NCBI GenBank assembly: GCA_013239625.1
Contig: MU053588.1
Coordinates: 3,066,799-3,130,798 of the forward strand
Source of the DNA: Lama guanicoe
Lineage: Eukaryota
DNA: 64,000 nucleotides
Reading direction: 5' to 3'
Numbering within the stretch: the stretch's first letter is position 1; each line of letters opens with the position of its first letter. This document shows positions 1-64,000 of the stretch, piece after piece. Both the position numbers and the translations under genes were made by a program. A model generated the notes under the pieces. That model did not search any database and was not told the origin of the DNA. It saw only the letters and a list, made by a program, of their open reading frames with translations.

Positions 1-1579
1 AGGACGCTAAGTGAAGTGTCCAGCCCTCCTGGTCTATTTTCTCTCCAGACCTCAGAGAAACCTTTGCAGCAAGCACACACCATATAATTTTACTGTCATG
101 AGCCTGATGTGAGCCCCTAAGTGCCACTGAGGGAGGGAATTATGGATCATGTTATATAAATATGTGACCACATATGCAAAGATGAACATTTCCAGGTACA
201 GTTGGTTGAATAATTTACAGACTCTAGGTCAGAAGTACATGACTTGCTTTTGACAACCTCGCCCTCCCTACCTGGTCTTTTGTCTGTAATCTCTTCTGAA
301 ATAAGAGAGTAAGGACCTTGTTATAAATTTCATGAAATAGAGAAGTGTACACATCTCCTGTCACCAGGCTGTTGAAGCAATGACCCTGCACTCAACTTCC
401 TTAGTGTTACTATCTTGGGATTTCAAAAATGAGATTTCATCAGTCCCTTCCTTGGAGGGGCTATTAAATAACACTCAAAGGGAAACAGCAATTTACCCAA
501 AATACAGAGGCTGGAAGGAAACTGACAAGAACTAGTCCTGAAATATTCACAAAAATACCAAGATCTGGTGCTGCTGGTGCAGGAGGGCAAGGTTGTTTAA
601 GGGAGTGATAGGCAATAAATGACAAAAGAAAAGGCAAGGAGCACTCTAAAACTCAGGGAAGACTAAAACAAGAGTTAATTCAATTATCCCTCAATTATTA
701 CACAGCCAGTTATCCCTAAAGCCTCTCTGTGGGTCTCACTAAAAGACCCAGGACATAAGAAAATGCTAACAGACAGGTGAAATAACTTATAGAAGCGTGG
801 GAACAACTAGTCAGGAATTGCTGGGGAAGATTTCACGAAAGAGGTAGAATTCGGGTTAGACCTTTGAATGGTTAAGTCTTAGGGAAACAGAGACAGAGAA
901 ACACCAACACAGAGAACCATGTGTCAGGCATTACTGTAGATGCAAGTTTTGAAAAGGATTTCAGAAATGAGAATGGGTTTGCATATGTTATTTTATTTAC
1001 TCCATTCAACCACTGTATGTGGTTATTTCATAGGAGGATGCTGATCCTCAGAAAGATGAAGTAACTTGCCAAGGTCAGTGGCGGATCTGGAATTAGAAAG
1101 TAGGTATGTCTAACTCCAAACCACTGAGAAAGGAACACAGTATGTTTAGGGAACAGGAAGGAGTAGGGACAGCTACAGAGGAAAGACAATTATGAAACAG
1201 GGAATTTAAGTAAGCTTGCAAAAGTGGAACCATGTTGCACAGCCGTGGAAATGAAACAGAGACATTTGAAATTGATCCTGTGGTGAAAGAAGAGCCACTG
1301 AAGGTTTTGAATAAGGGAGTAACCAAAGTGATGACTTGAGCAAAGACCAAACAAGATGGTGGTGAAAATGGGAGTTCTGGTTCCTAAGCTACAGAGATGC
1401 CACTATAATAGTAAAGGGGGCCACGTGATTTAGTGCAGCAAGAACTGGACTGAGAGTGAGAAACTTGGGTTTAGATGTAGAAAGCTAAGTGACAGAAGTC
1501 ATGTTCTCTCTCTGGACTTCAGTCTCTTCCTCCATAAACTGGGTGAAGTGAGAGTTAATCTAAATGATCTCTAAGGCTT

Positions 1580-1700
1580 TGCCACTCAAAGTGTGATCCA
1601 CCAACCAGCAGCAACAGCATCATCCAAAAGCTTATTCGAAATACAGAATCTTAGGCTCCACCAGAAGAATCATATTAAAGTTTGAGACACTTCTCTAAAG
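1580..1700. mobile_element. MER5A-like fragment (paralog about 50320-50615, interrupted by a SINE)
   Basis: ctcaaagtgtgatcc..accagcagca.cagcatca...gcttatt.gaaat.cagaatct. Confidence 0.6.
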
Positions 1701-1860
1701 TGTCTTCCAGTTCTAAAATGCAATAGTTTCAGACTCTATCACTTCACAGGAGAGAAAAAAAAAAAGTTTATCTAGTCACTTCACCTGTGCCCTTTTCCTA
1801 ATAATGCTAACCTCATCTCTGATTTGCCCACATCTGAGTAGTCTTGGGAGATACCAATGG

Positions 1861-1882
1861 GGCAGTGCTGCCATCTTGTGGC
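1861..1882 (-). promoter_or_regulatory. CTCF-like motif GGCAGTGCTGCCATCTTGTGGC (paralog 50791-50812 altered)
   Basis: Resembles the consensus TGCCACCTAGTGG. Confidence 0.5.
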
Positions 1883-2159
1883 AAAAATCAGTAAATGCCC
1901 TTTTCTCACCAATTAAGGGGCTGGGAGGGTTGGCTCTTGCATCAAACATCTCCACTTACTAAACATGACTCATTTCAGAGACTTTAGGAAATGGATTCAA
2001 AGACAGAGGAGAGGCTGTCCTTGAGTGCTGGGTAATACTTGTGGGGCTGAGGGGAAGGTTAACAAGGAAGTCCTCCCTGGAACCCTCCAGACAGGAGTGA
2101 GAAAAGGTGGTGTAACTTTGTTCAAGCCAAGAGGAGGGAAGAGGCAAGACATAGATTCT

Positions 2160-3077
2160 TATGGGGTTCTGGCTTCTTTTTTTTTTTTGAGCTTTGCTCT
2201 TTTATTTTTTTTTTATTGGAGTACAGTCAATTACAATGTACTAATTTCTAGTGTACAGCACAATGTCCCAGTCATGCATATACATACATATATTTGTTTT
2301 CATAATCTTTTTCATTAAAGATTATTACAAGACATTGAACATAGTTCCCTGTGCTATACAGTAGAAACTTATTTTTAATCTATTTTTATATATAGTAGCT
2401 AACATTTGTAAATCTCAAACTCCCAAATTTACCCTTTCCCACCGCCTTTCCCTGATAATCATAAGATTGTTTACTAAGTCTGCAATTCTCTTTCTGTTGT
2501 GTAGATGAGTTCATAGTGTCTTTTTTTTTTTTTAGATTCACATATGAGGGATATATGGTGTTTTTCTTTCTCTTTCTGCCTTTCTTTCACTTAGACTGAC
2601 AATGTCCAGGTCCATCCATGTTGCTGCAAATGGCATTATTTTACTATTTTTATGGCTAAGTAGTATTCAATTGTATAAATATACAACAACTTCTTTATCC
2701 AGTCAATGTCGATGGACATTTAAGTTACTTCCATGTCTTGCCTATTATATATAGTGGTGCTGTAAACATTGGGGTGCATGTATCTTTTTGAATTAGCGTT
2801 CCCTCCGGATATACACCCAGGAGTGGGACTGCTGGATCATATGGTAAATCTATTTTTAGTTTTTTGAGGAATCTTCATACTGTGTTGCATAACAGCTGCA
2901 CCAAAGTACATTTCCACGAGCAGTGTAGGAGGGCTCCCTTTTCTCCACACCCTCTCCAGCATTTATCGTTCATGGACTTTTGAATGATGGTCATTCTGAC
3001 TGGTGTGAGGTGATACCTCACTGTAATTTTGATTTGCAATTCTCTGATAATTAGTGATATTGAGCATTTTTTCATGT
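2160..3077 (-). mobile_element. LINE-1 3' fragment (about 0.9 kb), copy-1 specific
   Basis: Poly-T at about 2177; ORF2 C-terminus ([28 protein letters not shown]). Degenerate TSD aagacatagattct (2146-2159) / aaggcatagcttct (3078-3091). Absent at the paralogous site near 54200. Confidence 0.9.
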
Positions 3078-4666
3078 AAGGCATAGCTTCTGTTTGCTCA
3101 TTCTTACCCTCTCGGTTTTGGATTGTTCTTGCCTATGGACGTGCTGGAGAGTTGAACATAGACTTTGCTACTACAGAGTTTATAAAGCATCTGCAGGCGG
3201 CAGGCACTGTGCTAGACAGTGGAGACTGTCCTCGATTTGAAGGCTCAGACTCAGTCTGAGCTTGGTCTGATATAACCCACTGATGTGGCTCCTACATGGA
3301 AAATTCTAACGAATTCTTCCTGAGGTGCCTGTCCTCAGGAAGCTCAAGTCTAGCCAGGGAGATGACATGCACTTCATAAAACCTAGGGATGTGGTGGAAC
3401 CAAATTTCAGAAGTGACGGGAGTTCACTGTGGACTGTGAGTAGGTCAAGGGACTCTGGGTTCGGTGGAACCGGGGCTGGGTCTCCAGGGTGGGGTTGGAT
3501 TTGTGCTGCTGGAGGGCAGAGCAGATGGCATGGAGCTAATTGGGTGGGGACTTTTGAGGCAGGGGCTGTTTATTGTTCATTTTTATGTTCCTGAACTTGA
3601 GTAGGGCCTGGCACTTTGGGAGTGCTCTGTAAATGTTTGCTTATTTGAATATTTTGTAACACTTTAACTAGGCCTGCTATGTCAGAAAGCATGTGAAAGT
3701 GCAGTCCAGTACCAAAAAGGAAATTTTTCTGACAGAAGATCACGCACACGTGGAGCTGAGGGGGTACTTTGCTTTCCCATGGAGTCATTCACCAGTCAGG
3801 TGTAGTAAGTGCTGATGTTCTGTACCCCTAACGTTTGCTCCAAGTAGTATCACCTCCTCCTTTACCCTTGGGCTGTTTCCAAACAAGGTGTGATGCCAAG
3901 AGCCTCAGCAGCCTGGGCAATCACCTCCCCTGCTGCGGCTGCTGTTTCTCAGACCCTCTGGGACCTGAAGCCTAGAGGGTCTTCCACCAACCCAGTTCCC
4001 TCTCCTTTAGGCAGGAGCCCTTAGGCCACGGCCACCTTCCTGACCAACGAGGAGGCCTGCTTTGACCCAGTGCTCCAGGGCAGGGTTTGGGGCAAGAGAG
4101 AAGAGCCTCTCCTCCTTGGTCCTCTCTGCTTCCCACCTCACGTGGCCACAGAATTCGGGGAAATTGTAAACAGCCAGGACGCGGCAACTTCCCAAACAAC
4201 AACACTGCTGTTGCAAGGATGAGAGTGGGGAAGACAGAGGGGAAACAGACCGTGTCCTCCTCTCTTTGCCAACCTTTAGCACTCACTTTCCTGCCAGATA
4301 CTAAGCTAGAAAATGTCACTCGGTATAAGGAAATTCAAACAAGCAAAAAGACTTGGGGAAGAAATCAAAGCATGTTGGTAGGCAGGGAGGCAGGAAGAAA
4401 GAAGGGAGGGAATGAGTTATGCTGCCAAGTTATCAGTCACCCTCTCATGTTCTTAAGAATGCTTCATTTCTTTTGTTTGGCCAGTTTGACCTCCCAGATT
4501 CCCATAAAGCACATGATCCAACTTAACTGTTACCTAACAAGGCCAGGGTAACTTATCCGTTCTCACCATCTAAAGAGAACACTGGCCTGGGATTAAAGCG
4601 CAGACCTTCTAACTGGGAACCTTCCACACAGTCTTCAAGTGACCTACCACAGCACCAGCAGTTGAA

Positions 4667-4745
4667 ATGAAAGTTCTAATCTCTTCCCTCCTTCTGCTGC
4701 TGCTACTAATGCTGATGTCCATGGTCTCCAGCAGCCCAAATCCAG
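4667..4745 (+). CDS. CXCL17: CXCL17 copy 1 exon 1 coding part (signal peptide), phase-1 donor
   Basis: ATG at 4667; [26 protein letters not shown]; donor g|gtaaa at 4745/4746. Confidence 0.95.
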
Positions 4746-7700
4746 GTAAAAAAAGATTAAATTTTTTTGAAAGGGATAAAGGGTGGGAGAAAATGTGGCA
4801 AAACAGAAAAGAGCATGACCACACATGCAGTAAAATGTAGCCTCTTCAGGCTACAGGAATGAGGAGCAAGTTAGCCTTTCTCTGGGCCTGTTTCCTCATT
4901 CACTGATTTACAAAAAGGAAAGAACTGTACATAAATCCAAAGAGGGTTGTGAGAGTTAAAGGAGCCAGCGTGTATGAAAGTGTCTGGAACTGTACCTGGT
5001 GGGAGAAAAAATAACTGCTCCTCCAATATTTGCTATCTTACCTCTCCCCCAATCCTTGTTCCAGAGAGTAATTTCCCCAGGGAAATTACTGGTGGCGGTG
5101 GTGGCAGGATGTTGAAGGCAATTGTACATCTGTAGACAATAAGGAAGTCCTCGATTATATTCTAACAATTTTTACTATGATTACACAGTAAGGTGATAAA
5201 CTAGAAAAATCACACCACCAGGTAGTACCATGTTTGAAGCTGTAGCCACACCAAGCCCTGTTTGAACAGCTCACCTATGGGAAGCAGACCTTGGGTTAGG
5301 GGTTCTGAATTGGCGCCAGCCTTCACTACAGCCCAAGTGGCCAGGCCCTTAGCAGTACAACTGTGCAGAAGGGACCGATCCCCATGTGTGCTGCCACTTG
5401 AGGGAAACATCTCTCCAAGGGCCACTTTGAAATGAAATAGCTTTGTAACATACTTAGCATCGACTCGTGGTCCTAAAATCAGGAGTTCACCCTACTCCAT
5501 CCCAATTTCTAACATCCCCTCCATTACAGAGAGAGCTCTCTGGAAGCTGCTGGGCCCCACAGCCTTAGGGCCTAGAACACCCTTCTGGAAGGGAAAGCTT
5601 TTCCACCACCAGGACTGACACCAAGGCTAGAGTCCTCAGCCTGGATTCAAAGCTCCAGCCACAGCTGCCTTTCCCGTCCACCCCTCCTCGCACTAACCAG
5701 ACCTCTGGGCTCCACTCAACTAGACCTCGGGCTGTTCCCGAGCTGGTCCTGTGCTTTCCCACCAGCTCAACTTTGCTCACACAACCTGCCCAAAACCACC
5801 TCCTCCCCAGCCTCCCTTGACTCCACCCAGGACCAGATATGAGCTCTCCCTCATGTGAACAAGCTTAGCCCTAACTTGACTCTCTCTGCACTTTTCATCT
5901 TCTGCCTTAAGTTGAGGTGTTGGCGTGCATCTCCCACCCCCACCCCTGCCCTTCTATCTGCAGCCTCCTCATTGGCACAGACTGGTGTATTGTTTCCACA
6001 TCGCTCACATTATCTGGCACAGTGCTCAGTAAATATTTGCTAAGTGAAAAAATAAAGCCTCAGATTTCTACGTTCAAATGTTGCCTTTAGAAAACTCGAC
6101 ACCTGGGTTTCATAGCAGCTCTATTGACATTAGGGATGGATAATTCTTTGCTGTAGGGGTGCTGTTCTATGCATTGTAACCTGTTTAGCAACACTCACCT
6201 GGCCTCTACCCACTAGAAGCCAGTAGCAGCCTCCCCCCTACCTCCTCCCAGTTAATACAGCCAAAAATATCTCCAGTCATTGCCAAACTTCCCCTGGAGG
6301 AGGAAACCACCCCCTAGTTGAGAGCCGCTGCTTTATACCAATAATCCCTACACATGGAGAGATTTTTTGACTCCCAGGAATTTCAGAATCAAATTTGAAT
6401 TCAGGGCAACTGCAATCCAAATCCTGGCTCCATCACTTACTTTGAAACCCTGGACAGGATGCTTAAAATTTTTGAACCTCAGTCTTACTATCTTAAAATG
6501 AATAAAATACCACTTAGTGAATACAACTGCTGTGAAGACTAAATGACTGATCATACGAGCCTAGCAAGAGTTCAATAAATGTAACTGAGTAAAACAGCTA
6601 AAGTAGTTCTAAGGCACAAGGGCGACAGGTTGGGGAAAGCGCACTCCGCCGCCAGGTGGCACAATGACAAACCACGTTGGTTCCGTGATGCCCGGGCTCA
6701 ATCCTTGTTTCCCAGGCCAGCATAGTTTGCAACACAGGACCAAGTCTGGAGGAAGGAAGTAATACTCCTTCAGCCCCCAGAGAAATTTCTCAGAATAAAA
6801 TCTGATCCTACCTTATCTCTTTAAAAGAAAAAACACATACATGTTTAATATGCTTTTTACAGGGGAGGGGGGGAAAATGAAATCGGTAAGAAGCGATGAC
6901 AATGTTAGGAAATACATCACTTACAATAATAGAATACACATTACTTATAAGATTATTTATAACTTATAAAATGACCTGTACCAACAGCACCTACGTGTTA
7001 AACAAGCCTTTGTGGCAGGCTGTCCTCAGCACTTCACATGTATGACACCTCATGTGTCCTCACAGAAATCTAATGTATTTTTTTAACTTTTCATTTCTCA
7101 GACTTAAATATTGTTGTAAAAATAATCAGAGTTCCAATATATCCTCCATCCAGATTTTTTTCAAATAACACCAGACATAACCATAATACAATTATCAAAA
7201 CCAGAAAATTAGCAATGATACAATACTACTAGCTAATGCACAAATGTTCAGAGTTTGTTAATCATCCACTGATGTCCCTTTCCCGGTCAGAATCCAATCC
7301 AAGATCCTACACTGAAGAAAGTTATCATCTCTCCTGGTCTCCTCCAATCCAGGGCACTTTCTCAGAACTTCCTTGTCTTCCATGACCTTGACACTTTTGA
7401 GGAGTACTGTCAATTATTTTACAGAATGTCCCTCAATTTGGACTTATCTGATGTTTCCTCATGATTAAATTCAGATTATGATTTTTGGCAAAAACACCAC
7501 AGAAGTGATGTTTGCCTTCTTGGTGCAACACATCAAAAGACCCACGTTAACAGTATCTTTTGTTACAGGTGATGTTAAGTTTGAACACTGCTTAAGGCAG
7601 TGTCCATAAAGACACTGTTTTCCCATTGAAAATAATAAGTATCTTCTGGAGAGACACTTTGAGCTATGCAAATAGCCTGTTTCTTCTAATCATACTTTTG

Positions 7701-10700
7701 CCAATTAATTTTGAAAATCATTGATGATTCTTGCCTACAACAAGTATTACTATGGCCTTAGCCAAATGGTGATTTTCTATTTCCATCATTCCTTCTAAAT
7801 TTATCAAGTAGGATTCTACTATAAGAAAGAGCTATTCCTTCTCCCCTTTATTCAGGTATTCAATTACTAGTTTACATAAGTAAATTCTCAGGGATATTTG
7901 TGTATTATAATTTATTACTATCCTTATTTATAATGTTGTTGATATTGTCCCAAAACTGGCCACTGAGAGCCTCTTCAGATTGACCTCTGCATCATTTTGA
8001 CAGATCGGGGTTTTTTTTTAGCAGTTTTTGACTTTCTGATACCATAAGATGTTCCAGGCTCATCTTCTGCTTTCCTTCCCTGTCCTTGGAGTCAGCCATT
8101 TCTCTAAGGAGCCCTGGTTCCTTTAATGATATACACAAACCTTGGGCACAAAGGTATTACCCATTGCTATTAGGGCTATTGCATCTAGGCCCTCTGGTGG
8201 ACACAGCGAAGAAACAGATGTATGTACACACATACCAATATACTTTTTTTAGCCCCATTTTATGAATTAGGTAAATGGGGCACAGAAGAGTTAAGCAACT
8301 TGTCCAAAACCACAAAACTAATACACAGTGGAACTGGAAAGTCAAAATAACAACAGAACTACCACAAAAACTAACAAGTGGAAGCTACTTCTTTACATAT
8401 GCCAAAGAGCAGAAAGCAATAAGCCAAATAGCCCAGCACAGACATTTACTTTGGGAAATAATCAGAAGTCTGCAATAATAACCACAATAATAACCATCAT
8501 GTACAGAACACCTCCTTGGGCACTGGACCACACAGTAGTTCATTTACTTCTAACAGCTCTGCAAGGTGGATACCAATACTCTCTCTTTACAAATCAGAGA
8601 ACCAAAGACCAAAGAAGCTAAGTGACTTCTCCAAGACCACATAGTTAAGTGACAGAGCAAGTAGTTGACTCCTAAGTCTGTCTGACATCAAGTCCATGCT
8701 ATTCCACCATATCAATATTTTCCAAAACTGATTTTAGTTAGAACATAAATTAGCTTTCACTTTAATAGTTATATGTTTATTTTAATGCGTGTTAGAAAAA
8801 AGCTAAGCATGTATCAAACCCACAATCTCACAGAAAATATTGCATTGGATGAAGCTTTTATGTAAATCAAATTTGTTTAGAGAAGAAGTATGAACTAAAT
8901 AGTTTAAGAGGTGGTACAAGCTATAGCAAAAATTGCAAAGGCAGTTCAAAAATGTCTGATGTTTGTTTTGTGGGACATAATACTATATTAACATGCAGCT
9001 TCATTTTCAGTTACACCATAAAATTAGGGTCATGCAGGGCTGCAAAAAGAACAACAGACTAAGAGTCTTAAACCTGGATTTTAGCTCCAGATGAGTCATC
9101 TTTACCTTTGTGAACTTGGGCTTTTCATTTGCTTTCTCTGGGTCTCAGTTTCCTTACCTGGGGGGGAAAAAAAGAGATAGTGATTTAGTTAATTTGTATA
9201 ACCCTTTTAAAAGCAACTTAGTAATTAGAATAATTAGAACCAGAGTTCCCTCTGGTTCTAATATTCTGTGGCTTTACGCTGGAACCAGAAATGGAGGTCA
9301 GGTGAGAGTAAAATATTAGAAAAGTTTAGATGGCAGGGGCTATGCCTGTTGAAATTACTTTAACACCACTCAAAACAGCACATGAGAACAATCTGGAAAC
9401 CAGCACTTGGAGAAATGACGCAACACCCTCCATCTGTGTGGCAGAAAGGGCACGAGTCTGGGAAATAGGGGAGTTGGATGGAGCCAGATGCTGCTCTAAG
9501 GGCCCTCTCTAGACAGCCTGTCTGTCTGCTTATCGCAGAAACATAAATGTGCCTATGATGTGTCAGGAGCCGTGTAGCTGAATGACTTCTGAGCCACTGG
9601 TTCAGAGTCCAGGGAAGGAGGTGGATTTTTAGTTTGCTAGCACTGCCACCACAAAATACCACAGACCGGGTGGCTTAAACAACAGTAATTTATTTTATCA
9701 CAATTTTGGAGGCTAGAAGTCCAAGAGCAAGTGTCAGCAAACTTGGTTACTCTGGGGACTCTCTCCTTGGCTTACAGATGGCCATCTCTTTACTAGTTCC
9801 TCACCTGGTCATTCCTCTGTGCGTGTAACATACCTGGTGTCTTTCTCTGTGCCCAAATCTCTTCTTTTTTTTTTTTTAACACTTTTTATTGAGTTATCAT
9901 CATTTTACAATGTGTCAAATTTCAGTGTAGAGCACAATTTTTCAGTTATACTTGAAAATATACATATTCATTGTCACATTTTTTTCTCTGTGAGCTACCA
10001 TAAGCTCTTGTATATATTTCCCTGTGCTATACAGTATAATCTTGTTTAGTTATGCTACATTTTGAAATCCCAGTCTGTCCCTTCCCACCCCCTTGGCAAC
10101 CACAAGTTTGTATTCTATGTCTATGAGTCTGTTTCTGTTTTGCATTTATGTTTTGGTTTTTTTTTAGATTCCACATATGAGCGATCTCATATGGTATTTT
10201 TCTTTCTCTTTCTGGCTTACTTCACTTAGAGTGACATTCTCCAGCAACATCCATGTTGCTGCAAATGGCATTATGTTGTCGGTTTTTATGACTGAATAGT
10301 ATTTCATTGTATAAATATACCACTTCTTCTTTATCCAGTCATCTGTTAATGGACATTTAGGCTGTTTCCATGTCTTGGCTATTGTAAATAGTGCTGCTAT
10401 GAACATTGGGGTGCAGGTGTCATTTTGAAGTAGGGTTCCTTCTAGATAGATGCCCAGGAGCGAGATTCCTGCATCATATGGGAAGTCTATTCCTAGTCTT
10501 TTGAGGAATCTCCATACTTTTTTCCACACTGGCTGCACCAAACTGCATTCCCACCAGCAGTGTAGGAGGGTTCCCTTTTCTTAACAGCCTCTCCAGCATT
10601 TGTCATTTGTGGATTTTTGAATGATGGCCATTCTGACTGGTGTGAGGTGATACCTCATTGTAGTTTTGATTTGCATTTCTCTGATAATTAGTGATATTGA

Positions 10701-21789: not shown

Positions 21790-21835
<46 letters not shown>

Positions 21836-44700: not shown

Positions 44701-44719
44701 CAAAGAAGCAGCTAACTCA

Positions 44720-50251: not shown

Positions 50252-50388
50252 CTTCAGTCTATCTTCATTCATAAACTAAAGGAAGTAAGAATTAATCCAA
50301 ATGACCTCTAAGGCTCTCCTACTCAAAGTGTGGTCTACCGCCCAGCAGCAATGGCATCATCCAAAGGCTTATTAGAAATGCAGAATCT

Positions 50389-52047: not shown

Positions 52048-52949
52048 ACCACAGCAACAGAGCCACAGGACGACCCACGTCCCCATTCTGAGCATTTTAC
52101 CTGTATTTAGAAAGACAAATTCCACATCAGCTGATATGAGGAGACAGGGTTCTCCTACTTCTGTTGCTGCTCAGACATCCCACACCTGCACGGGTGTATA
52201 CTTTTTGTTCAGTTTTTTAAAAAAGAAGTATTTATTAGAGCCTGCTATGCACTATGTGCTGGAAACACAAGGATGAATCAGACCTGGTCCCCGCCCATTG
52301 AGGTCCAGGTATGGAGGGAACCCAATTCAAAGACAGAACATAGCACTTAAGTGAGAAAACATTTTGATAGAGGTAAACATAGACCTTGGGCCCATCTTGT
52401 CAACCCCCTGTGAAAGTGGTCCACTCTGGGTTTTCTGGGTTCTAGTTTTCCTCATTTCAAGCTCAAAGTGAAAAATAAAAAGAATGCAAGTGTACCAGAT
52501 GGCCCTTTTTGCAGTCATGGCTGAATCATACACTTCCCTCTGGATAGTTGAAAATGTTGGTGGGCTCCCACTTCATTCTGAATGTCCTCTTTCTCATACT
52601 AGAGCTCACCACACATGCACACGCAGCAGCCAGGCAGCTGCACACTAACAGAGATTCCAGCAAGTCAGGAAACTTGAGTTTTACTTCCCTGGCTTTGAGG
52701 CTGACTGAGATGTTGAACAGCTCATGTAAACTCCCTGAGCTTTCATTTCCGATTCTGTAAAACAGAGCAGTTGGACTAACTCTCCATGGGTCTCTGTGTG
52801 TAGTGAGCGCTCCTCAGGAAAGCATCACATCTTCCTCTACTCGGGAGCCACCACCCACAGATACCAGGTATACATCAGGGATTCAGTGCTCACTGAATGA
52901 CTGTTCATAGAGCAAAGGGAAGCATAGGATCAATCAACAAGTATTTTTT

Positions 52950-53097
52950 TAAGCTTTTTTTTTTTTTAGTTTTCTTTTTTGCGGGCAGTAGGTGATTAGG
53001 TTAATTTATTTATTTTTGGAAGAGGTACTGGGGATTGAGCACAGGACCTCATGCATGCTAAGCATGTGCTCTACCACTAGAACTATACCCTGCCCCC
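52950..53097 (-). mobile_element. tRNA-derived SINE (Vic-1-like)
   Basis: Reverse complement of the same head (gcatgctaagcatgtgctctaccact); TSD caatcaacaagtattttt on both sides. Confidence 0.9.
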
Positions 53098-55258
53098 AAT
53101 CAACAAGTATTTTTGAATGTCTACTAAGTACACTGTAAACTGTTTCTCCTATGATCCCCTTACCTCCTTACAAAGGGGGACCTTATAAGTCATAAAGACT
53201 GTGTTGATGCATACAATGTTCTCAAGATGAGCTCTAAGTCGTTCTCAATGTCAGCAAGAGAAGAATCTGTTTGTATTGTGAGTGTTTTTATATCAATGGA
53301 CCTGAGAGACCCAAAGCCCCTTCTCATGGAAAAAAGAAAATGACACCCCATTCCAAGTCCATAGGGGGGAAATCTGATGGAGTGAACTGACAGGGAGCCA
53401 GGGCCTGGCAAGAGTAGAGGGGTAAACAGACTGAGGGGACCTGGAAGAAGGTGTGAGGAGGAACTCCCTGATCCTGAAGCTGACATGGAGTAGACTGGTA
53501 GACGATGGGATGGGAAAGCAAAGCTCCCCCTCAGTTCCATGTGTGTGCGTGATATTCTGTCAGAAAAATTTCCTTTCTGGTACTGGACTGCACTTTCACA
53601 TGCTTTCTGACATAGCAGGCCTAGTTAAAGAGTTATGAAATATTCAAATAAGCATTTACAGAGTACTCCCAAAGTGCCAGGCCCTACTTAAGTTCAGGAA
53701 CATAAAAATGAACAATAAACAGCCCCTGCCTCAAAAGTCCCCACCCAATTAGCTCCATGCCATCTGCTCTGCCCTCCAGCAGCACAAATCCAACCCCACC
53801 CTGGAGACCCAGCCCCGGTTCCACCGAACCCAGAGTCCCTTGACCTACTCACAGTCCACAGTGAACTCCCGTCACTTCTGAAATTTGGTTCCACCACATC
53901 CCTAGGTTTTATGAAGTGCATGTCATCTCCTTGGCTAGACTTGAGCTTCTTGAGGACAGGCACCTCAGGAAGAATTCGTTAGAATTTCTCATGTAGGAGC
54001 CACATCAGTGGGTTATATCAGACCAAGCTCAGACTGAGTCTGAGCCTTCAAATCGAGGACAGTCTCCACTGTCTAGCACAGTGCCTGCCGCCTGCAGATG
54101 CTTTATAAACTCTGTAGTAGCAAAGCCTACATTCAACTCTCCAGCACGTCCATAGGCAAGAACAATCCGAAACCGAGAGGGTAAGAACGAGCAAGCAGAA
54201 ACCATGCCTTGCCTCTTCCCTCCTCTTGGCTTGAACGAAGTCACACCACCTTTTCTCACTCCTATCTGGAGGATTCCAGAGAGGACTTCCTTGTTAACCT
54301 TCTCCTCGGCCCCACAAGTATCACCCAGAACTCAAGGCCAGCCTCTCCTCTGTCTTTGAGCCTATTCCCTACAGTCTCTGGAATGAGTCAGGTGTAGTAA
54401 GTGCTGATGTTCTGTACCCCTAACGTTTGCTCCAAGTAGTATCACCTCCTCCTTTACCCTTGGGCTGTTTCCAAACAAGGTGTGATGCCAAGAGCCTCAG
54501 CAGCCTGGGCAATCACCTCCCCTGCTGCGGCTGCTGTTTCTCAGACCCTCTGGGACCTGAAGCCTAGAGGGTCTTCCACCAACCCAGTTCCCTCTCCTTT
54601 AGGCAGGAGCCCTTAGGCCACGGCCACCTTCCTGACCAACGAGGAGGCCTGCTTTGACCCAGTGCTCCAGGGCAGGGTTTGGGGCAAGAGAGAAGAGCCT
54701 CTCCTCCTTGGTCCTCTCTGCTTCCCACCTCACGTGGCCACAGAATTCGGGGAAATTGTAAACAGCCAGGACGCGGCAACTTCCCAAACAACAACACTGC
54801 TGTTGCAAGGATGAGAGTGGGGAAGACAGAGGGGAAACAGACCGTGTCCTCCTCTCTTTGCCAACCTTTAGCACTCACTTTCCTGCCAGATACTAAGCTA
54901 GAAAATGTCACTCGGTATAAGGAAATTCAAACAAGCAAAAAGACTTGGGGAAGAAATCAAAGCATGTTGGTAGGCAGGGAGGCAGGAAGAAAGAAGGGAG
55001 GGAATGAGTTATGCTGCCAAGTTATCAGTCACCCTCTCATGTTCTTAAGAATGCTTCATTTCTTTTGTTTGGCCAGTTTGACCTCCCAGATTCCCATAAA
55101 GCACATGATCCAACTTAACTGTTACCTAACAAGGCCAGGGTAACTTATCCGTTCTCACCATCTAAAGAGAACACTGGCCTGGGATTAAAGCGCAGACCTT
55201 CTAACTGGGAACCTTCCACACAGTCTTCAAGTGACCTACCACAGCACCAGCAGTTGAA

Positions 55259-58200
55259 ATGAAAGTTCTAATCTCTTCCCTCCTTCTGCTGCTGCTACTA
55301 ATGCTGATGTCCATGGTCTCCAGCAGCCCAAATCCAGGTAAAAAAAGATTAAATTTTTTTGAAAGGGATAAAGGGTGGGAGAAAATGTGGCAAAACAGAA
55401 AAGAGCATGACCACACATGCAGTAAAATGTAGCCTCTTCAGGCTACAGGAATGAGGAGCAAGTTAGCCTTTCTCTGGGCCTGTTTCCTCATTCACTGATT
55501 TACAAAAAGGAAAGAACTGTACATAAATCCAAAGAGGGTTGTGAGAGTTAAAGGAGCCAGCGTGTATGAAAGTGTCTGGAACTGTACCTGGTGGGAGAAA
55601 AAATAACTGCTCCTCCAATATTTGCTATCTTACCTCTCCCCCAATCCTTGTTCCAGAGAGTAATTTCCCCAGGGAAATTACTGGTGGCGGTGGTGGCAGG
55701 ATGTTGAAGGCAATTGTACATCTGTAGACAATAAGGAAGTCCTCGATTATATTCTAACAATTTTTACTATGATTACACAGTAAGGTGATAAACTAGAAAA
55801 ATCACACCACCAGGTAGTACCATGTTTGAAGCTGTAGCCACACCAAGCCCTGTTTGAACAGCTCACCTATGGGAAGCAGACCTTGGGTTAGGGGTTCTGA
55901 ATTGGCGCCAGCCTTCACTACAGCCCAAGTGGCCAGGCCCTTAGCAGTACAACTGTGCAGAAGGGACCGATCCCCATGTGTGCTGCCACTTGAGGGAAAC
56001 ATCTCTCCAAGGGCCACTTTGAAATGAAATAGCTTTGTAACATACTTAGCATCGACTCGTGGTCCTAAAATCAGGAGTTCACCCTACTCCATCCCAATTT
56101 CTAACATCCCCTCCATTACAGAGAGAGCTCTCTGGAAGCTGCTGGGCCCCACAGCCTTAGGGCCTAGAACACCCTTCTGGAAGGGAAAGCTTTTCCACCA
56201 CCAGGACTGACACCAAGGCTAGAGTCCTCAGCCTGGATTCAAAGCTCCAGCCACAGCTGCCTTTCCCGTCCACCCCTCCTCGCACTAACCAGACCTCTGG
56301 GCTCCACTCAACTAGACCTCGGGCTGTTCCCGAGCTGGTCCTGTGCTTTCCCACCAGCTCAACTTTGCTCACACAACCTGCCCAAAACCACCTCCTCCCC
56401 AGCCTCCCTTGACTCCACCCAGGACCAGATATGAGCTCTCCCTCATGTGAACAAGCTTAGCCCTAACTTGACTCTCTCTGCACTTTTCATCTTCTGCCTT
56501 AAGTTGAGGTGTTGGCGTGCATCTCCCACCCCCACCCCTGCCCTTCTATCTGCAGCCTCCTCATTGGCACAGACTGGTGTATTGTTTCCACATCGCTCAC
56601 ATTATCTGGCACAGTGCTCAGTAAATATTTGCTAAGTGAAAAAATAAAGCCTCAGATTTCTACGTTCAAATGTTGCCTTTAGAAAACTCGACACCTGGGT
56701 TTCATAGCAGCTCTATTGACATTAGGGATGGATAATTCTTTGCTGTAGGGGTGCTGTTCTATGCATTGTAACCTGTTTAGCAACACTCACCTGGCCTCTA
56801 CCCACTAGAAGCCAGTAGCAGCCTCCCCCCTACCTCCTCCCAGTTAATACAGCCAAAAATATCTCCAGTCATTGCCAAACTTCCCCTGGAGGAGGAAACC
56901 ACCCCCTAGTTGAGAGCCGCTGCTTTATACCAATAATCCCTACACATGGAGAGATTTTTTGACTCCCAGGAATTTCAGAATCAAATTTGAATTCAGGGCA
57001 ACTGCAATCCAAATCCTGGCTCCATCACTTACTTTGAAACCCTGGACAGGATGCTTAAAATTTTTGAACCTCAGTCTTACTATCTTAAAATGAATAAAAT
57101 ACCACTTAGTGAATACAACTGCTGTGAAGACTAAATGACTGATCATACGAGCCTAGCAAGAGTTCAATAAATGTAACTGAGTAAAACAGCTAAAGTAGTT
57201 CTAAGGCACAAGGGCGACAGGTTGGGGAAAGCGCACTCCGCCGCCAGGTGGCACAATGACAAACCACGTTGGTTCCGTGATGCCCGGGCTCAATCCTTGT
57301 TTCCCAGGCCAGCATAGTTTGCAACACAGGACCAAGTCTGGAGGAAGGAAGTAATACTCCTTCAGCCCCCAGAGAAATTTCTCAGAATAAAATCTGATCC
57401 TACCTTATCTCTTTAAAAGAAAAAACACATACATGTTTAATATGCTTTTTACAGGGGAGGGGGGGAAAATGAAATCGGTAAGAAGCGATGACAATGTTAG
57501 GAAATACATCACTTACAATAATAGAATACACATTACTTATAAGATTATTTATAACTTATAAAATGACCTGTACCAACAGCACCTACGTGTTAAACAAGCC
57601 TTTGTGGCAGGCTGTCCTCAGCACTTCACATGTATGACACCTCATGTGTCCTCACAGAAATCTAATGTATTTTTTTAACTTTTCATTTCTCAGACTTAAA
57701 TATTGTTGTAAAAATAATCAGAGTTCCAATATATCCTCCATCCAGATTTTTTTCAAATAACACCAGACATAACCATAATACAATTATCAAAACCAGAAAA
57801 TTAGCAATGATACAATACTACTAGCTAATGCACAAATGTTCAGAGTTTGTTAATCATCCACTGATGTCCCTTTCCCGGTCAGAATCCAATCCAAGATCCT
57901 ACACTGAAGAAAGTTATCATCTCTCCTGGTCTCCTCCAATCCAGGGCACTTTCTCAGAACTTCCTTGTCTTCCATGACCTTGACACTTTTGAGGAGTACT
58001 GTCAATTATTTTACAGAATGTCCCTCAATTTGGACTTATCTGATGTTTCCTCATGATTAAATTCAGATTATGATTTTTGGCAAAAACACCACAGAAGTGA
58101 TGTTTGCCTTCTTGGTGCAACACATCAAAAGACCCACGTTAACAGTATCTTTTGTTACAGGTGATGTTAAGTTTGAACACTGCTTAAGGCAGTGTCCATA

Positions 58201-61200
58201 AAGACACTGTTTTCCCATTGAAAATAATAAGTATCTTCTGGAGAGACACTTTGAGCTATGCAAATAGCCTGTTTCTTCTAATCATACTTTTGCCAATTAA
58301 TTTTGAAAATCATTGATGATTCTTGCCTACAACAAGTATTACTATGGCCTTAGCCAAATGGTGATTTTCTATTTCCATCATTCCTTTTATAGTTAGTAAC
58401 AGAGATTCTACTGTAAGAAAGATCTGTTCCTTCTCTCCCATTTATTTAGGTATTCAATTATTTATTTATATAAGTAAAGACCCAGGAATATTTGTGGACT
58501 ATAACTCATTACTATCCTTATTTACAACGTTGCTCATATTGTCCCAAAACTGGTACCTTTTCGACATGTCAATTCTTTCGCAGTTCCTTACTTTCTGACA
58601 CCAAAAGATGTCCACCTTGTACTTCCCTTCCCCAGCCCTGGAGTCACCCATTTCTCCACAGAGACCTGGTTCCTTTCATGGGACAATGATACTCACAAAC
58701 CTTGGGCACTAGGTATTGCCCATTGCTCCTAGGTGCTACTGCGTCTAGGCCCTCTGGTGGACAGAGCTAGGAAACAGATGTATGTACCTACACTTGTGTA
58801 CTATTTTTAGCCTCATTTTACAAATTATGTAAATGAGGCACAGAAAAGTTAAGCAACTTGCCCAAAATCACAACACTAATATGTAGTGGAACTGAGAAGT
58901 CAGAATAATAATAGATCTACCCCAAAACCTAACAAGTGGAAGTAACTTCTTTACAGCAGAGAGCAATAAGCCTAACACTCCAGCATAGACGCTCACTTTG
59001 GGAAATAATTAGAAGTCTGTAGTAAAATCCAAATAATAACCATCATATACTGAAAACCGTACTTGGGCACTGCATCCACAGTGGCTCATTTATTCCTAAC
59101 AACTCTGCAAGGTGGATACCAATACTCTCTCTTTACAAACCAGACAACCAAAGATCACAGAAGCTAAGTGACTTCTGCAAGATTGCATACATAATTGACA
59201 AAACAAGCAGTTGACCCCAGGTCTGTATGGATGTAAAATCCATGCTTGTTCCACTGTACCACTATTTTCCAAAACTGATCTTATGTAGAACCTAAATAAG
59301 CTTCAACTTTAATAGTCATATGTTTTAATGCATCTTAGAAAAAAATCTAAGTATCAAATATGTAATCTCACAGAAAATATTGCACAAATGAAGATGTTAT
59401 GTAAATTAAATTTATTTAAAGAAATAAAGTATGACATAAATAACAATAGAGGTGGTATAAGCTATAGCAAAAATCATAAAAGTGTTCCAAAAATGTCTGA
59501 TGTTTGTTTTGAGGGACATAATATTTAGTAACATGCAGTTTCATATTCAGTTACACCATGAAATTAGGGTCATGCAGGGCTGCAAAAAGAACAACAGACT
59601 AAGAGTCTTGGACCTGAATTTTAGTTCCAGATGAGTCATCTTTACCTTGGTGAACTTGGGCTTTTCACTTGCTCTCTCTGGGTCTCACTTTCCTCACTTG
59701 AAAAAAAAAGAGATAGTGATTTATAATTAGTACAACCCTTTTAAAAGCAACTTGGTAATTGTATAAAGAAACATAAAATTGTTCTTAACTTTTGTCCCAG
59801 TAATTCCACTTGGGAAATCTTCCTCAAGGCACAAATGCAACATTTGAAAACAGTTACAAGCACAAAGAAATGTATCGATATCCAAAAATAATATAATCTA
59901 AATATTCAGCAATGAGAGAACAGTTAAATAATCTGAAGTGCATATACTTGGGAGTATATAATTCTGTCATGAGTGTTGTGAGACAACACAAGAACAAGCT
60001 TATAAAGTGAACAAAAAGAAATTTGTTCACATGGTATGGTTATCATTACATTGAAAATTTATATACAGGAAATGTACTAAAATTCCAACAGTTGTTAACA
60101 GTAAAGATTTTTTATTTGTACTTTATAAGTTTTCTCTAATAAAGTTACATTGCGTTAAAAAGAAAAAAGAAAAACATCTCAATGAACTGGTACCACTAAT
60201 AATCTCCAAGATGTCGTCTGGCTCTAATATTCCGTGCCTTTTCTCTGGAACCAGAAATGGAGGTCAGGTGAAAAATATTAGAAAAGCGTAGATGGCAGGG
60301 GCTATGCCTGTTGAAATTACTTTAACACCACTCAAAACAGCACATGAGAACAATCTGGAAACCAGCACTTGGAGAAATGACGCAACACCCTCCATCTGTG
60401 TGGCAGAAAGGGCACGAGTCTGGGAAATTGGGGAGTTGGATGGAGCCAGAAGCTGCTCTAAGGGCCCTCTCTAGACAGCCTGTCTGTCTGCTTATCGCAG
60501 AAACATAAATGTGCCTATGATGTGTCAGGAGCCGTGTAGCTGAATGACTTCTGAGCCACTGGTTCAGAGTCCAGGGAAGGAGGTGGATTTTTAGTTTGCT
60601 AGCACTGCCGCGACAAAATACCACAGATCGGGTGGCTTAAACAACAGTAACTTAATTTCTCACAATTTTGGAAGCTGGTCATTCCTCTGTGCGTGTAACA
60701 TGCCTGGTGTCTCTCTGTGTGCCCAAATTTCTTCTTATAAAGATTCAAGTCAGACTGGATTAGAGCCCACCATAAGGGCCTCATTTTAACTTAATGCTCT
60801 CTTTAAAGGCCCTATCTCCAAAAACAGTCATTCTGACTTATTAAGAGTCACGGCTTCATTGAGTTTTAAGGGGACACAGTTCAGTCCACAACATACTTCA
60901 AACAACAAACTGTAAGTGTAATTGGGCAATGAGAGAGCTGCATTCGAATGCCATGGGGAAACAGGTGAAGACATAATCAATTCTGACAGGAAAAATCAGA
61001 AACCCCTATTCAGAGGAAGCATTATCTGGGCCCAGTTCTAGCCCCAGAATCTCTATAAAACATCATACTTGATTGTCATACAAATATTTTAGGTATGACA
61101 AAGTGGGAATAAGATAGCATCAGGTGATAAGACAGCCTTGAATAGAGGCCTAAAGGGGCAAGGATTTGTTCCAGAGGAACAAAGATAAATATTGTCTTCT

Positions 61201-62434
61201 TATGGTTAAACTGCAACTATGGATTCAAATACAACCAAACATGGAGGTCAGGTGAAGTTCCTGACTGCCTTATGGAATAATCTACTCCTTGCTCTCATTC
61301 CTAAGTCTTGAGGATTTTCATGTGTGTAGAGGGGATCTTAATGGAGGGAGGTTGTAAGGTCTTGATTAACCCTTACCTTTTGTCCTCTCTTCTATCCAGA
61401 AGCTGTTCCTTCTTCCCCTACCTCCAGCCTAACTTTTCTCTAGGCCAGACTGTAAACCTCAATTCCTTATCCATTTAAAATACTTCTCTCCTGAAGTGCC
61501 CTAGGATCCCTGAGTGAAAAAGGAAAAGAAATGGAGCTGCGCTGACCTAGGCAGCACAATGATGGGGGATGGTTTCTTTTGGCCCCTTCCCTTTCCAGTG
61601 CCTGGAAGTGACCTGTTTCCTTCCGACAGGGGTCGCCAGAGGCCACAGGGACCAACGCCAAGGTTGGTCTGGAGGAGGCTCCAGGAAGGCGCCCAAGAAT
61701 GTGACTGCAAAGGTCAGTAATTCAACATCAACAACAGCGATGCATCATCAAGATCCCAACTCACTCCCTCGAGTCCGTCTGAGACCAATGCAGATGTTAC
61801 CTGAGCTTTCCCCTCTCCACCAGCCCACCACATGCAGCACCAACACTTATTTTCTTCCTGAGCCTCAGGCAAGAGCTGAGGCAAGGGCTCCAAGGTCCAG
61901 GGGAGAGCTGCCTGAATCTCTGGCTGCCCAAACCCCCTTTCCCTTTTTCCCCCAACAATCCAGGGCTGCTTTCTAAGATCTTCCTGAATCCTATTCTCAA
62001 TTTTACTTTACTCACAGGTTAGACTGAAATCAGAGAGGCAAAATGACTTACTTTAAGTAAAGCAGCCACTAAAAGGCAGACACCTAGGTCTTCCTCCTCA
62101 CTTTTGGGTCTCTCTAATGATACCCTCATGCCTCTTCCAGATCTGCCACCAAATTCTTGCCCATACAGGTCAGGCAAAACAACCTAGAAACCCTGGTGCT
62201 CATAGAACTGGATATGGTGACTGTTTTTGTTGACCCTTTGCCACACCCACTGCAGTATGAGAAAGAGGCGAGGAAGATGCCAAGTGAAGCCCCGCCCTCA
62301 AACATATTAACCCTCCTAAGCAGCAACCCTTTTATTTCAGATTGGTTCCTGAGAACCTCTGAAAGAAAACTCACAACAGTGCCCTGGCTGCCAGTGCCCC
62401 TGTGATCATTTCAAGGGCAGGGTAAAGAAAACCA
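55259..62434 (+). pseudogene. CXCL17: CXCL17 copy 2, frameshifted. Exons 55259-55337, 61630-61712, 62341-62434; exon 4 expected beyond the window
   Basis: Exon 1 is identical to copy 1. Exon 2 is 83 nt (+2). TGA at 62350-62352. Exon 3 is 94 nt (-8). Confidence 0.92.
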
Positions 62435-64000
62435 GTAAGTTGCAAAAGAATGACCTTCCTTAAACTTGGTCACTCTGTGGAATCAACTAGGGATGAAGCA
62501 GGTGTTGAAGAGACAAGAGAGATGAAGTGGAGACCAGGATAAGCACACACCTTAGCCTTTTCTACTCAATGTCACCTTGTAAGGAAATAGAAAGAGCAAA
62601 ATATAATTCTCTTAAGACTAGAGAGGTTTAGCAAAATTCTTTAATGATAGAATGCCATTGCTTATCAAAGTGGACAGAGACAGGGTTGTGGAGACCTGGT
62701 CATTGATCTCTGACAATTACACCAGTGTTGATGTCAAATAGAACTTGATTCATCCCTAGTCTAACTGTTTAAATGTCATAGAAAAAGTAACCTGGCAAAT
62801 GTTAAACTGATTGATACTATGATATTATCAAGAATAAAATAAATCACTGTTGATGGAAGTAAAATACAATTTAGTAGTAATTATCAAAAACTTAAATGTG
62901 TGTTCCTTTTAACTAGTAATCTGGATGCTTTAAGATCTCTACTATAGAATACTAGCATGGATACTCAAAGATATATGTACAAGAATACTAATTATAGTAG
63001 TATTTGTATTGACAAAGAAATGAAAATTTTAAATGTTCATCATTAACAGACTGACTGTGTGATCATTTCACAATGTATAAAATACCAAATTGTTACGTTA
63101 TGCACCTGAAACTAATATAATGTTATATGTCAATTATACTTCAGTTTAAAAATTTCATCATAAGCATATTGGGCAATTCTGCTGTTGTCAAAAATAATTA
63201 GATAGATAATTATGATTACTGATTGGAAAGATATCCACAATATACTAAGTGAAAAAAAGGTGCAGAGGCCCACACCCATTTCAAACACACCACAAAAATA
63301 AATTTCAGTGGATTAAAGCGACAAATTTGAAAGACAAATTTATAAGGGAATGCAGAAGAATATTCATACCTTGAGGTAGGAAAGAATTTCTTAAACAAGG
63401 TACAAAAAGTATGTCATAATGGAAAAAATTAATAAATCTGACTTCATTGAAATTAAGAAATTTGGCCACCAAGAAGATAAAATGACAATCTACAGAGGAG
63501 GGGTAATGTCTGCAACATATATAATCGACAAAGGGTTAATATTCAAACTATATAAGGAACTCCTATAGATCAATGAGAGGAAGGCAGGTAACACAACAAA
63601 TGGGCAAAAGACTTGAACAGGCGCTTCAGAGACAAGAAATCCAAATAGCTAATCAACATGTGAAATGGCACACAACCTTACTAGTAACTGGGAAAACATG
63701 AATTAAACCCAAACAGAGATCACTGTACATGATCAGATTGACAACAACTTTAATTAATGTGTGACAGTACCAAGTGTTGGCAGAGAGCAGAATAAAGAAA
63801 CTCTCATCTTCTGCTAATGGAAGCATAAAGTGGTAAATCACTTGGAAAAAGTGCTGGTGGTTTTCTACTAAAGTTTAAGCTCTGTGACCAAGCAATTCTA
63901 CTCTCAGATGTATACTCAAAAGGAATCCATGCTTATGTACACTGGGAGACATGTACAAGGGTTTCATAGCATTGTTCATAAGTACCCCAAACTGAAAAGT

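Follow-up and report, generated by a model that had tools for sequence, protein, structure and literature searches.

A probable camelid-stem tandem duplication of CEACAM1, CXCL17 and 5' LIPE, followed by decay and gene conversion

A 64,000-nucleotide stretch of the genome of the guanaco, Lama guanicoe (contig MU053588.1), hereafter the window, carries an intact CXCL17, a LIPE remnant, a headless CEACAM1 and a frameshifted second CXCL17, in that order and all on the forward strand. A single tandem duplication on the camelid stem, followed by decay of copies and ongoing gene conversion, is the probable explanation of the locus. Its gene order, decayed genes and strata of differing identity are directly seen, as is its presence in both camel tribes. 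The order and strand agree with the original prediction made from the letters of the window; CXCL17 lies at 4667-18111, the LIPE remnant at 19474-22713, the CEACAM1-like gene at 33200-41616 and the second CXCL17 from 55259. The human order and strand are LIPE-CXCL17-CEACAM1, according to the available part of PMC8726699. The gene features of the window are as follows.

4667-4745, 14884-14964, 15612-15713 and 18014-18111, forward strand: exons of CXCL17 copy 1, intact, 360 nt, with AG/GT sites
19474-20363, forward strand: LIPE testis exon T1, pseudogenised, with GTG for the start, the donor GT kept, 4 frameshifts and 9 stops
21000-22050, no strand assigned: CpG-rich stretch, CpG observed/expected 0.57-0.76 vs 0.0-0.4 elsewhere in 19-34 kb
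22068-22293, forward strand: remnant of LIPE exon 6 that retains its donor, has no acceptor left and has a destroyed catalytic serine motif
22531-22713, forward strand: remnant of LIPE exon 7, in phase 1, with both AG and GT preserved
22714-33199, no strand assigned: junction region; homology to LIPE intron 7 runs to about 22,845, followed by about 10 kb that lack LIPE exons and a CEACAM leader or N exon
33200-33478 (A1), 34349-34627 (A2) and 38865-38994 (TM), forward strand: Ig and TM exons of the headless CEACAM1
39716-39768, 40444-40475 (acceptor AC) and 41497-41616, forward strand: cytoplasmic exons of the headless CEACAM1
55259-55337, 61630-61712 (+2 nt) and 62341-62434 (-8 nt), forward strand: exons of CXCL17 copy 2, a pseudogene whose exon 4 lies beyond the window

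The protein of CXCL17 copy 1 is identical to alpaca XP_072823152.1 at 119/119 residues, and Pfam PF15211 is matched on exons 2-4. CXCL17 is described as a ligand of GPR25 that has four exons, adjoins LIPE and has Xaa-Pro-Yaa at its C terminus (bioRxiv 10.64898/2026.05.18.725876, available part), and copy 1 shares all of the features listed: besides four exons and LIPE as its neighbour, it has the signal peptide, the cysteines and the Xaa-Pro-Yaa end. The camelid locus differs in possessing an extra frameshifted copy and in that the working CXCL17 adjoins a dead LIPE after duplication; the words camel, alpaca, hippo and duplication do not occur in the available text of that preprint. In copy 2, with its 83- and 94-nt exons, the frame is lost past residue 37 and meets a stop at codon 58.

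The frameshifts and stops of T1 and the destroyed serine motif of exon 6 support the prediction that a dead LIPE adjoins the intact CXCL17, and the dead T1 exon is 74-76% identical to camelid T1. In LIPE, exons 6 and 9 encode the Ser-Asp-His triad and exons 1-4 the N-terminal domain (PMC9754850); exons 1-5 and 8-9 are absent and the serine motif has decayed, leaving neither the triad nor the N-terminal domain. Matches to LIPE residues 299-718 and 854-1072 were not found anywhere in the window. The CpG-rich stretch is probably the LIPE upstream promoter region, and a deletion has joined it directly to exon 6. A search of 20.3-22.3 kb for LIPE exon A coding sequence, using 11 isoform N-termini, gave weak low-complexity matches only. 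One possible trace of exon A near 20,940-21,010 was not relied on. LIPE homology stops near 22,845 and CEACAM1 exons then follow, as they do in camel models; LIPE exons 8-9, a CEACAM leader and an N exon were not found in the junction region.

A CEACAM leader and IgV-like N exon were also not found in the six frames of the whole window, using a profile built from 95 of 137 CEACAM-like proteins. The exons that are present match alpaca models at 85-91/92 (A1), 90/92 (A2) and 43/43 (TM) residues. The ITIM-bearing tail is not reached in frame, given the AC acceptor of the second cytoplasmic exon: the last exon is itself intact, and both AG-conforming routes past the AC acceptor end at codon 328 or 330 of 376. 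The first cytoplasmic exon matches full-length camelid CEACAM1 at 17/17 and headless models at 12/17, and a full-type exon in a headless copy needs recent conversion, a third unit or mixing in the assembly. The DNA at 28.0-29.6 kb presumably resembles CEA-family upstream DNA and that at 29.65-33.2 kb the N-A1 intron, so loss of the leader and N exon would be a later deletion. The idea of a breakpoint inside CEACAM1 intron 2 is weakened by the roughly 10 kb between the LIPE remnant and A1. Metagenome contigs were considered as carriers of mammalian CEACAM1 DNA and rejected, as 3 loci of 65 candidate stretches showed 26-30% identity and belonged to unrelated Ig proteins.

LIPE and CEACAM1 each occur once within the window, so it is from gene order and database proteins that we infer their duplication. 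The two copies of the surrounding DNA are colinear and directly oriented on one molecule, except for a 0.9-kb inversion, and align in the following segments.

1517-1914, forward strand: leftmost inter-copy homology, to 50252-50844; old stratum, 83-84% identity, K2P 0.18-0.20
1945-3780, no strand assigned: inverted segment of copy 1, vs 53510-54411; reverse-strand BLAST matches of 89% and 96%
53510-54411, no strand assigned: copy-2 counterpart of the inverted segment
3794-7794, forward strand: identical block with CXCL17 proximal upstream DNA, exon 1 and the start of intron 1; 4,001 bp, zero mismatches vs 54386-58386
54386-58386, forward strand: second copy of the identical block
7795-9226, forward strand: old stratum in intron 1, to 58387-59760; 84.7%, K2P 0.173 +/- 0.013
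9867-13981, reverse strand: 4.1-kb LINE-1 insertion in CXCL17 intron 1 of copy 1, with L1 ORF2-like frames
13982-15800, forward strand: young stratum with CXCL17 exons 2-3, to 60729-62519; 96.6%, K2P 0.035 +/- 0.005
15801-17288, forward strand: old stratum in intron 3, to 62520-63997; 84.2%, K2P 0.180 +/- 0.014

The 4.1-kb element, which we take to be a LINE-1, is absent from copy 2, where an empty site is flanked on either side by similar words. The inverted segment of copy 1 is interrupted by a 3' fragment of an L1 (about 2160-3077). Inter-copy homology ends at 1517/50252, beside an L1, and the common CEACAM1-to-CXCL17 spacer lies outside the aligned DNA; a counterpart of 1-1516 was not found in 41.6-50.3 kb, nor one of 50.8-53.5 kb in 1-41.6 kb. 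The inversion of about 0.9 kb 5' of CXCL17 and about 3 kb of inter-copy DNA at 96-97% identity went unmentioned in the original prediction, which had proposed an old 50.6-kb duplication with an offset of 50592 and with unconverted parts 80-85% identical. Its estimates of age and identity hold, with old strata at 84.7% (1,206 sites) and 84.2% (1,246 sites). The offset is exact for the identical block and fails as a general one (range 46,709-50,966); a unit of 50.6 kb is likewise not recovered, as offsets vary between 46.7 and 51.0 kb and only 10,563 bp of copy-1 DNA can be aligned to copy 2. Co-amplification was an overstatement, since each gene has one dead copy here and a gain in dose is not seen.

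Adjacent blocks with K2P of 0.17-0.18, 0.035-0.038 and 0 meet at sharp edges. The A2 exons of full and headless CEACAM1 in alpaca show 0/91 residue differences from each other and 2-5 from the four camel copies compared; A2 is thus closer within than between species, less cleanly so among camels, and the TM exon is likewise closer within species. Judged from the sequence, gene conversion between the copies is indicated by the younger tracts, at 96-97% and over the 4,001 bp of 100% identity, and may have produced the identical block. It is possible, if the lesser probability, that this block alone is an assembly artefact, a collapsed consensus of two near-identical tracts placed twice: its edges are sharp, its length is round, and zero differences in 4,001 bp correspond to under about 170 kyr at an assumed substitution rate. 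However, the 96-97% strata carry real differences, which argues that conversion does act here.

The phylogenetic position of the dead T1 bears on age. In a tree without pig or ruminant sequences, from which 5 of 18 chosen proteins were dropped, it clusters with camelid T1 (support 99/98), and placement outside camelids plus whales, an alternative chosen once the first tree had been seen, is rejected (p-AU 0.0098). The tree puts the dead LIPE T1 on the camelid stem, at about 35-40 Mya, a date that would mark the last exchange and not necessarily the duplication. The oldest strata (K 0.17-0.18) fit about 40 Myr at an assumed rate of 2.2e-9. A duplication that pre-dates camelids, in a stem artiodactyl or earlier, and is common to hippo and whales, with conversion having reset the T1 exon, is rather unlikely. 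It would accommodate two CXCL17-like models in hippo (112/118 identical), two CXCL17 fragments on two scaffolds of a narwhal draft, which agree in exon 3 and differ in exon 2, a donkey LIPE-like model composed of the same exons 6-7, and a residue at the end of exon 7 that by eye is nearer the rhino state than that of camel, pig or whale, a weak sign at a CpG site. The T1 tree with its AU test and the age of the oldest strata speak against it, however, as do the horse-specific residues of the donkey fragment, which therefore looks independent, and a report that in cattle no CEA gene other than CEACAM1 lies between TGFB1 and LIPE (PMC7042247, available part).

A working LIPE and full-length CEACAM1, predicted to lie outside the window, are borne out by database proteins of alpaca and all three Camelus species, and headless models stand beside full-length CEACAM1 models in alpaca, dromedary, Bactrian and wild camel. 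Among the cluster members listed, 3/25 start with the LIPE remnant (two Bactrian, one wild camel). Between 87 and 93% of the words of 19.4-29.0 kb occur in 15 of the 24 sequencing runs listed (5 organism labels, 7 studies), a measure of presence and not of adjacency. Two RNA runs hold 0.20 of these words, a share that diverged camel DNA would equally give. In dromedary, the GenBank accessions run LIPE (KAB1273811), one model, headless CEACAM1 (KAB1273813) and CXCL17 (KAB1273814), an order that hints at two units and makes the predicted longer array an overstatement; alpaca RefSeq numbers (LIPE 138-141, full CEACAM1 142-145, CXCL17 152, headless 154) deviate from the predicted order. An array of three or more CEACAM1-CXCL17-LIPE units with the window as its middle is unlikely. 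The joining of a headless-type A1 to a full-type cytoplasmic exon would fit such an array, and hippo, with two intact CXCL17-like genes, suggests that the locus does expand; the three-member camelid CXCL17 cluster, however, has one full-length protein per species, and a single dromedary accession falls between LIPE and the headless CEACAM1.

Under a single camelid-stem duplication, for which we infer the flanks, the number of units and the breakpoint positions, a tandem event roughly 35-40 Mya would have taken in CEACAM1, CXCL17 and LIPE from its 5' part as far as intron 7, giving the order CEACAM1 > CXCL17 > LIPE(5') followed by CEACAM1 > CXCL17 > LIPE. The breakpoint would have cut the first LIPE short, with exons 1-5 lost afterwards, the second CEACAM1 would have come to lack its leader and N exon, and the second CXCL17 would have been frameshifted, leaving one working copy per gene, divided between both units. 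Neighbouring copies may have kept converting each other, which would place tracts with 84%, 97% and 100% identity side by side and keep the exons of the dead CEACAM1 open.

In both camel tribes, gene models and sequence predict in-frame splicing of LIPE exons 6-7 to CEACAM1 A1-A2-TM. The chimeric frame starts at 22239 and comprises 326 open codons, with AG/GT at each joint to the first cytoplasmic exon. The same N-terminal frame is present in Bactrian and wild camel models, which implies that it has stayed open for at least 16.3 Myr, the date used here for the split of the camel tribes (PMC12127551, available part). The fused frame is probably without function. On a broad reading of low probability, the CEACAM1-CXCL17-LIPE border would be a recurrent duplication point among hoofed mammals, namely camelids, hippo, narwhal and donkey, with a camelid LIPE-CEACAM1 fusion expressed for more than 16 million years; the LIPE promoter would drive constant Ig domains and an anchor, with the ITIM tail where the acceptor is intact and with no ligand-binding domain, and in testis or fat the product might be a modulator blind to ligand, or a regulatory RNA.

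It is very unlikely that the junction created a working chimeric gene, exon 6 > exon 7 > CEACAM1 A1-A2-TM-tail under control of the LIPE CpG promoter, with a role as RNA or protein. An in-frame splice path of 326 codons between parts of two genes exists, CpG-rich DNA lies directly upstream, the N-terminal frame matches Bactrian and wild camel models, and at the end of exon 7 a pair of indels, sized by eye, offset each other and preserve phase. However, Ig exons are compatible in phase 1 by default, conversion alone can keep such exons open, the camel models are predictions, and the alpaca and dromedary models begin differently. The LIPE-derived residues differ at 8/78 between window and camel, against 1/77 in working LIPE, and so appear relaxed and not conserved; a convincing signal peptide was not found in the frame (hydropathy peak 1.38 vs 2.35 for a true leader), and the AC acceptor would cut off the ITIM tail at codon 328-330 of 376.

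That the whole structure is an assembly artefact, with two haplotypes or paralogs wrongly joined, is extremely improbable: the full-type cytoplasmic exon inside the headless copy would fit it, yet 16% divergence and copy-specific insertions rule out an allelic duplication, and a wrongly assembled 22-33 kb junction is unlikely, since the same joint between LIPE remnant and CEACAM1 exon recurs in Bactrian and wild camel models that come from other assemblies.

The camelid locus represents ordinary birth-and-death evolution in a case not described before. At HBD/HBB of laurasiatherians, tandem paralogs reportedly undergo interlocus gene conversion and form chimeric fusion genes. The two systems share mosaic identity with sharp edges and paralogs more alike within than between species; here, in contrast, one partner per pair is dead, and the two genes fused in camelids, across a duplication junction, are unrelated and not paralogs. 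Lineage-specific CEACAM1 duplication with concerted evolution has been described, in the available parts of the papers, for CEACAM32/33/35 of cattle (PMC7042247), CEACAM28 of dog (PMC2110893), 27 mammals (PMC2832619) and Ceacam2 of mouse (PMC8726699). In common with those cases, CEACAM1 founds tandem paralogs accompanied by gene conversion and pseudogenes, and artiodactyl CEACAM1 lacks a B exon, with A1 followed by A2 here too. The camelid unit differs in including the non-CEA neighbours CXCL17 and 5' LIPE, and its paralog in lacking the N domain, the main basis of those studies as far as their available text goes. A camelid paralog of this kind is unmentioned in the available parts of these four papers, and CXCL17 has zero occurrences in the CEA-family papers checked for that name. 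No paper on a camelid or ungulate duplication of this locus was found, and supplementary tables or figures may mention one; CEACAM, CXCL17 and LIPE are absent from the text of a South American camelid CNV preprint and from the available part of a pan-camelid comparison (PMC12127551), and none of six locus terms occurs in the text of a horse CEACAM paper.

The duplication accounts for odd camelid annotations, namely the headless 'CEACAM1-like' models and the fused LIPE-CEACAM1 models, and gives two mapping positions to short reads and primers for camelid CXCL17 exon 1 and CEACAM1 A1-TM. With similar extra copies in hippo, narwhal and donkey, it can be tested whether expansions of the CEA family break at this border repeatedly, and the fusion transcript, if true, would be a new camelid gene. 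The locus provides a dated example of a living copy and a dead one that appear to go on converting each other, so that working CXCL17 and CEACAM1 could receive damaging changes from their neighbours.

Self-comparison of the window shows that 1.5-17.3 kb and 50.3-64.0 kb, the left and right CXCL17 regions (copy 1 and copy 2), are homologous in direct orientation, with 10,563 bp of copy 1 aligned to copy 2 in total. The block 3794-7794 matches 54386-58386 over 4,001 bp with zero mismatches at an offset of exactly 50,592, and offsets outside this identical block range from 46,709 to 50,966, mainly because a 4.1-kb L1 in intron 1 of copy 1 is absent from copy 2. No partner was found within 41.6-50.3 kb for bases 1-1516, nor within the first 41.6 kb for 50.8-53.5 kb. 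The original prediction was a 50.6-kb tandem duplication; duplication of the CXCL17 region is directly seen and the 50,592 offset is exact for one block, but a 50-kb unit is inferred from gene order. The copy-1 CXCL17 consists of four exons bounded by AG/GT sites, and its product agrees with alpaca CXCL17 at 119/119 residues and with that of Camelus at 118/119, which identifies the window as New World camelid DNA. In copy 2, exons 2 and 3 measure 83 and 94 nt, versus 81 and 102 nt in copy 1, and a stop falls at codon 58.

Approximately 0.9 kb upstream of CXCL17 lies in opposite orientation in the two copies. This inversion, in the regions 1945-3819 and 50845-54411, immediately precedes the CXCL17 promoter region. 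Copy 1 lacks 2.7 kb of copy 2 there and contains a 26-bp word in two places, as an inverted, diverged version and as the opening of the identical block. The layout suggests a deletion-inversion in copy 1, with conversion reaching its edge. Two short SINE-like copies (50389-50478 and 53006-53096), in opposite orientation and 80% alike, are both missing from copy 1.

The following features lie between the two copies:

19474-22713, forward strand: LIPE remnant, comprising the next four features
19474-20363, forward strand: LIPE testis exon (T1), retained and decayed, with 4 frameshifts and 9 stops
between T1 and exon 6: CpG-rich stretch, retained
LIPE exon 6: retained and decayed, serine motif destroyed
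LIPE exon 7: retained
33200-41616, forward strand: headless CEACAM1, with open IgC (A1, A2) and transmembrane (TM) exons and three cytoplasmic exons

No counterpart of alpaca LIPE residues 299-718 and 854-1072 was found within the window. In human, 16 kb separate T1 from the downstream exon 1 (PMC9754850), whereas T1 and exon 6 are 1.7 kb apart here, so that by analogy with the human spacing roughly 20 kb was probably deleted between them. At the end of exon 7 (22660-22713), the loss of one base offsets a small duplication and the donor phase is kept; Camelus models share this altered tail. Homology with an unspliced LIPE fragment stops at 22,844.

Among the 120 proteins listed of 230 matches (383 candidates), seven from camelids share 95-98% identity with the A2 exon, the best other species reaching 79%. 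A leader or N exon was not found in six frames using a profile from 95 of 137 CEACAM-like proteins; gene layout in the CEA family would favour later deletion of both near 29.65 kb over loss at the breakpoint. All four annotated camelids have both headless and full-length CEACAM1 models, which supports the anticipated presence of a complete CEACAM1 elsewhere than the window copy. Window A1 is identical to the alpaca headless model at 91/92 residues and to the full one at 85/92, and in three models annotated in the Bactrian and wild camel assemblies this LIPE exon 6-7 remnant likewise comes first, followed by CEACAM1 A1. Together, this recurrence, the coexisting CEACAM1 forms and the A1 match provide good indirect support for the LIPE/CEACAM1 junction as real. 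Of 24 sequencing runs listed, 15 (5 organism labels, 7 studies) contain 87-93% of the words from 19.4-29.0 kb, which reports presence and not adjacency.

The first cytoplasmic exon (39716-39768) is of the full-length camelid type (17/17, versus 12/17 for the alpaca and camel headless models), which would imply another recent exchange, a third unit or mixing in the assembly. The acceptor of the second (40442-40443) reads AC instead of AG, so the protein would terminate ahead of the ITIM; the exon behind it is present in alpaca and camel headless models, and the change may be confined to this guanaco or its species. Towards the 3' side lie two arms of about 34 bp, a near-perfect inverted repeat by eye, approximately 205 bp apart (41985-42260), then LTR-like sequence to about 42,740 and a decayed CEACAM A-type exon piece (43156-43309), 70% like the start of A1.

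LIPE, CXCL17 and CEACAM1 are consecutive on the same strand in human (PMC8726699). A single tandem duplication with an end in LIPE intron 7 would give the order CEACAM1 > CXCL17 > LIPE(5') followed by CEACAM1 > CXCL17 > LIPE, which predicts a full CEACAM1 left of the window and a working LIPE right of it. Dromedary accessions (LIPE KAB1273811, headless CEACAM1 KAB1273813, CXCL17 KAB1273814) fit this order, as do the consecutive numbers of full CEACAM1 and CXCL17 in wild and Bactrian camel; the RefSeq numbering of alpaca departs from it, and accession order is weak support for gene order. One copy of each gene has been lost, the survivors being distributed between the two units, so that dose is unchanged and the proposed co-amplification of the three genes gives way to birth and death.

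Divergence between the copies falls into three adjacent strata: K2P is 0.17-0.18 in CXCL17 introns 1 and 3, 0.035-0.038 near exons 2-3 as well as in part of intron 1 and of the inversion, and 0 in the identical block. Conversion between copies would produce such unequal strata and would have kept the Ig exons open; A2 is identical between alpaca full and headless models, and these differ from camel copies at 2-5/91 residues. At a mammalian substitution rate, a K of 0.175 corresponds to about 40 Mya and zero differences over 4 kb to less than approximately 170 kyr, so the identical block would result either from conversion in the very recent past or from collapse to a consensus by the assembly, the latter being judged rather unlikely. 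A tree of 13 working T1 regions and the dead window T1 (5 of 18 chosen proteins, from pig, sperm whale, narwhal, meerkat and sloth, were left out as T1 was short or unrecognised) places the dead T1 as sister of alpaca and dromedary T1, with support 99/98. Its placement outside camelids and whales, an alternative chosen after the first tree was inspected, is rejected (p-AU 0.0098). The branch point falls midway, with 0.11 on either side, between the divergence of artiodactyls at 55-60 Mya and that of camels and llamas at 16.3 Mya (PMC12127551), giving about 36-38 Mya. This date marks the last exchange between copies, and the duplication itself may be older. The old strata and the T1 branch both uphold the predicted old age.

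From 22,239, an open frame of 326 codons joins LIPE exons 6-7, A1, A2, TM and the first cytoplasmic exon with AG/GT at every joint. A read-through transcript is plausible, as exon 6 now adjoins CpG-rich upstream DNA. This setting, and the occurrence of the frame in camel gene models, would favour a functional fusion gene; however, the LIPE-derived part differs from camel at 8/78 residues versus 1/77 in working LIPE, the N-terminus is a poor signal peptide and the tail is truncated in the guanaco sequenced, making such a gene improbable.

A CXCL17 protein search (8 matches of 9 candidates, plus a cluster look-up) yielded two CXCL17-like genes in hippo, identical at 112/118 residues, and two draft fragments on separate narwhal scaffolds. 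A LIPE search (176 matches of 201 candidates) yielded, among the 120 matches listed, a donkey LIPE-like model of exons 6-7 with horse-specific residues, on a chromosome equal in length to the one carrying the donkey CEACAM models. CEACAM1 is reported as the only CEA gene between TGFB1 and LIPE in cattle (PMC7042247). For the hippo, narwhal, donkey and camelid copies, repeated events seem more probable than a single one common to all, and the extra copies in the first three may mark a border at which duplication has recurred.

Duplication of CEACAM1 in particular lineages, with concerted evolution, is well documented (PMC7042247, PMC2832619, PMC2110893, PMC13212111), and no description of a camelid CEACAM1-CXCL17-LIPE duplication was found in the main texts searched. 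The duplication is real and apparently undescribed, and of an ordinary kind: probably two tandem units, with reciprocal loss of genes between them and conversion still under way. Its potential importance rests on the fusion frame and on possible recurrence among hoofed mammals.
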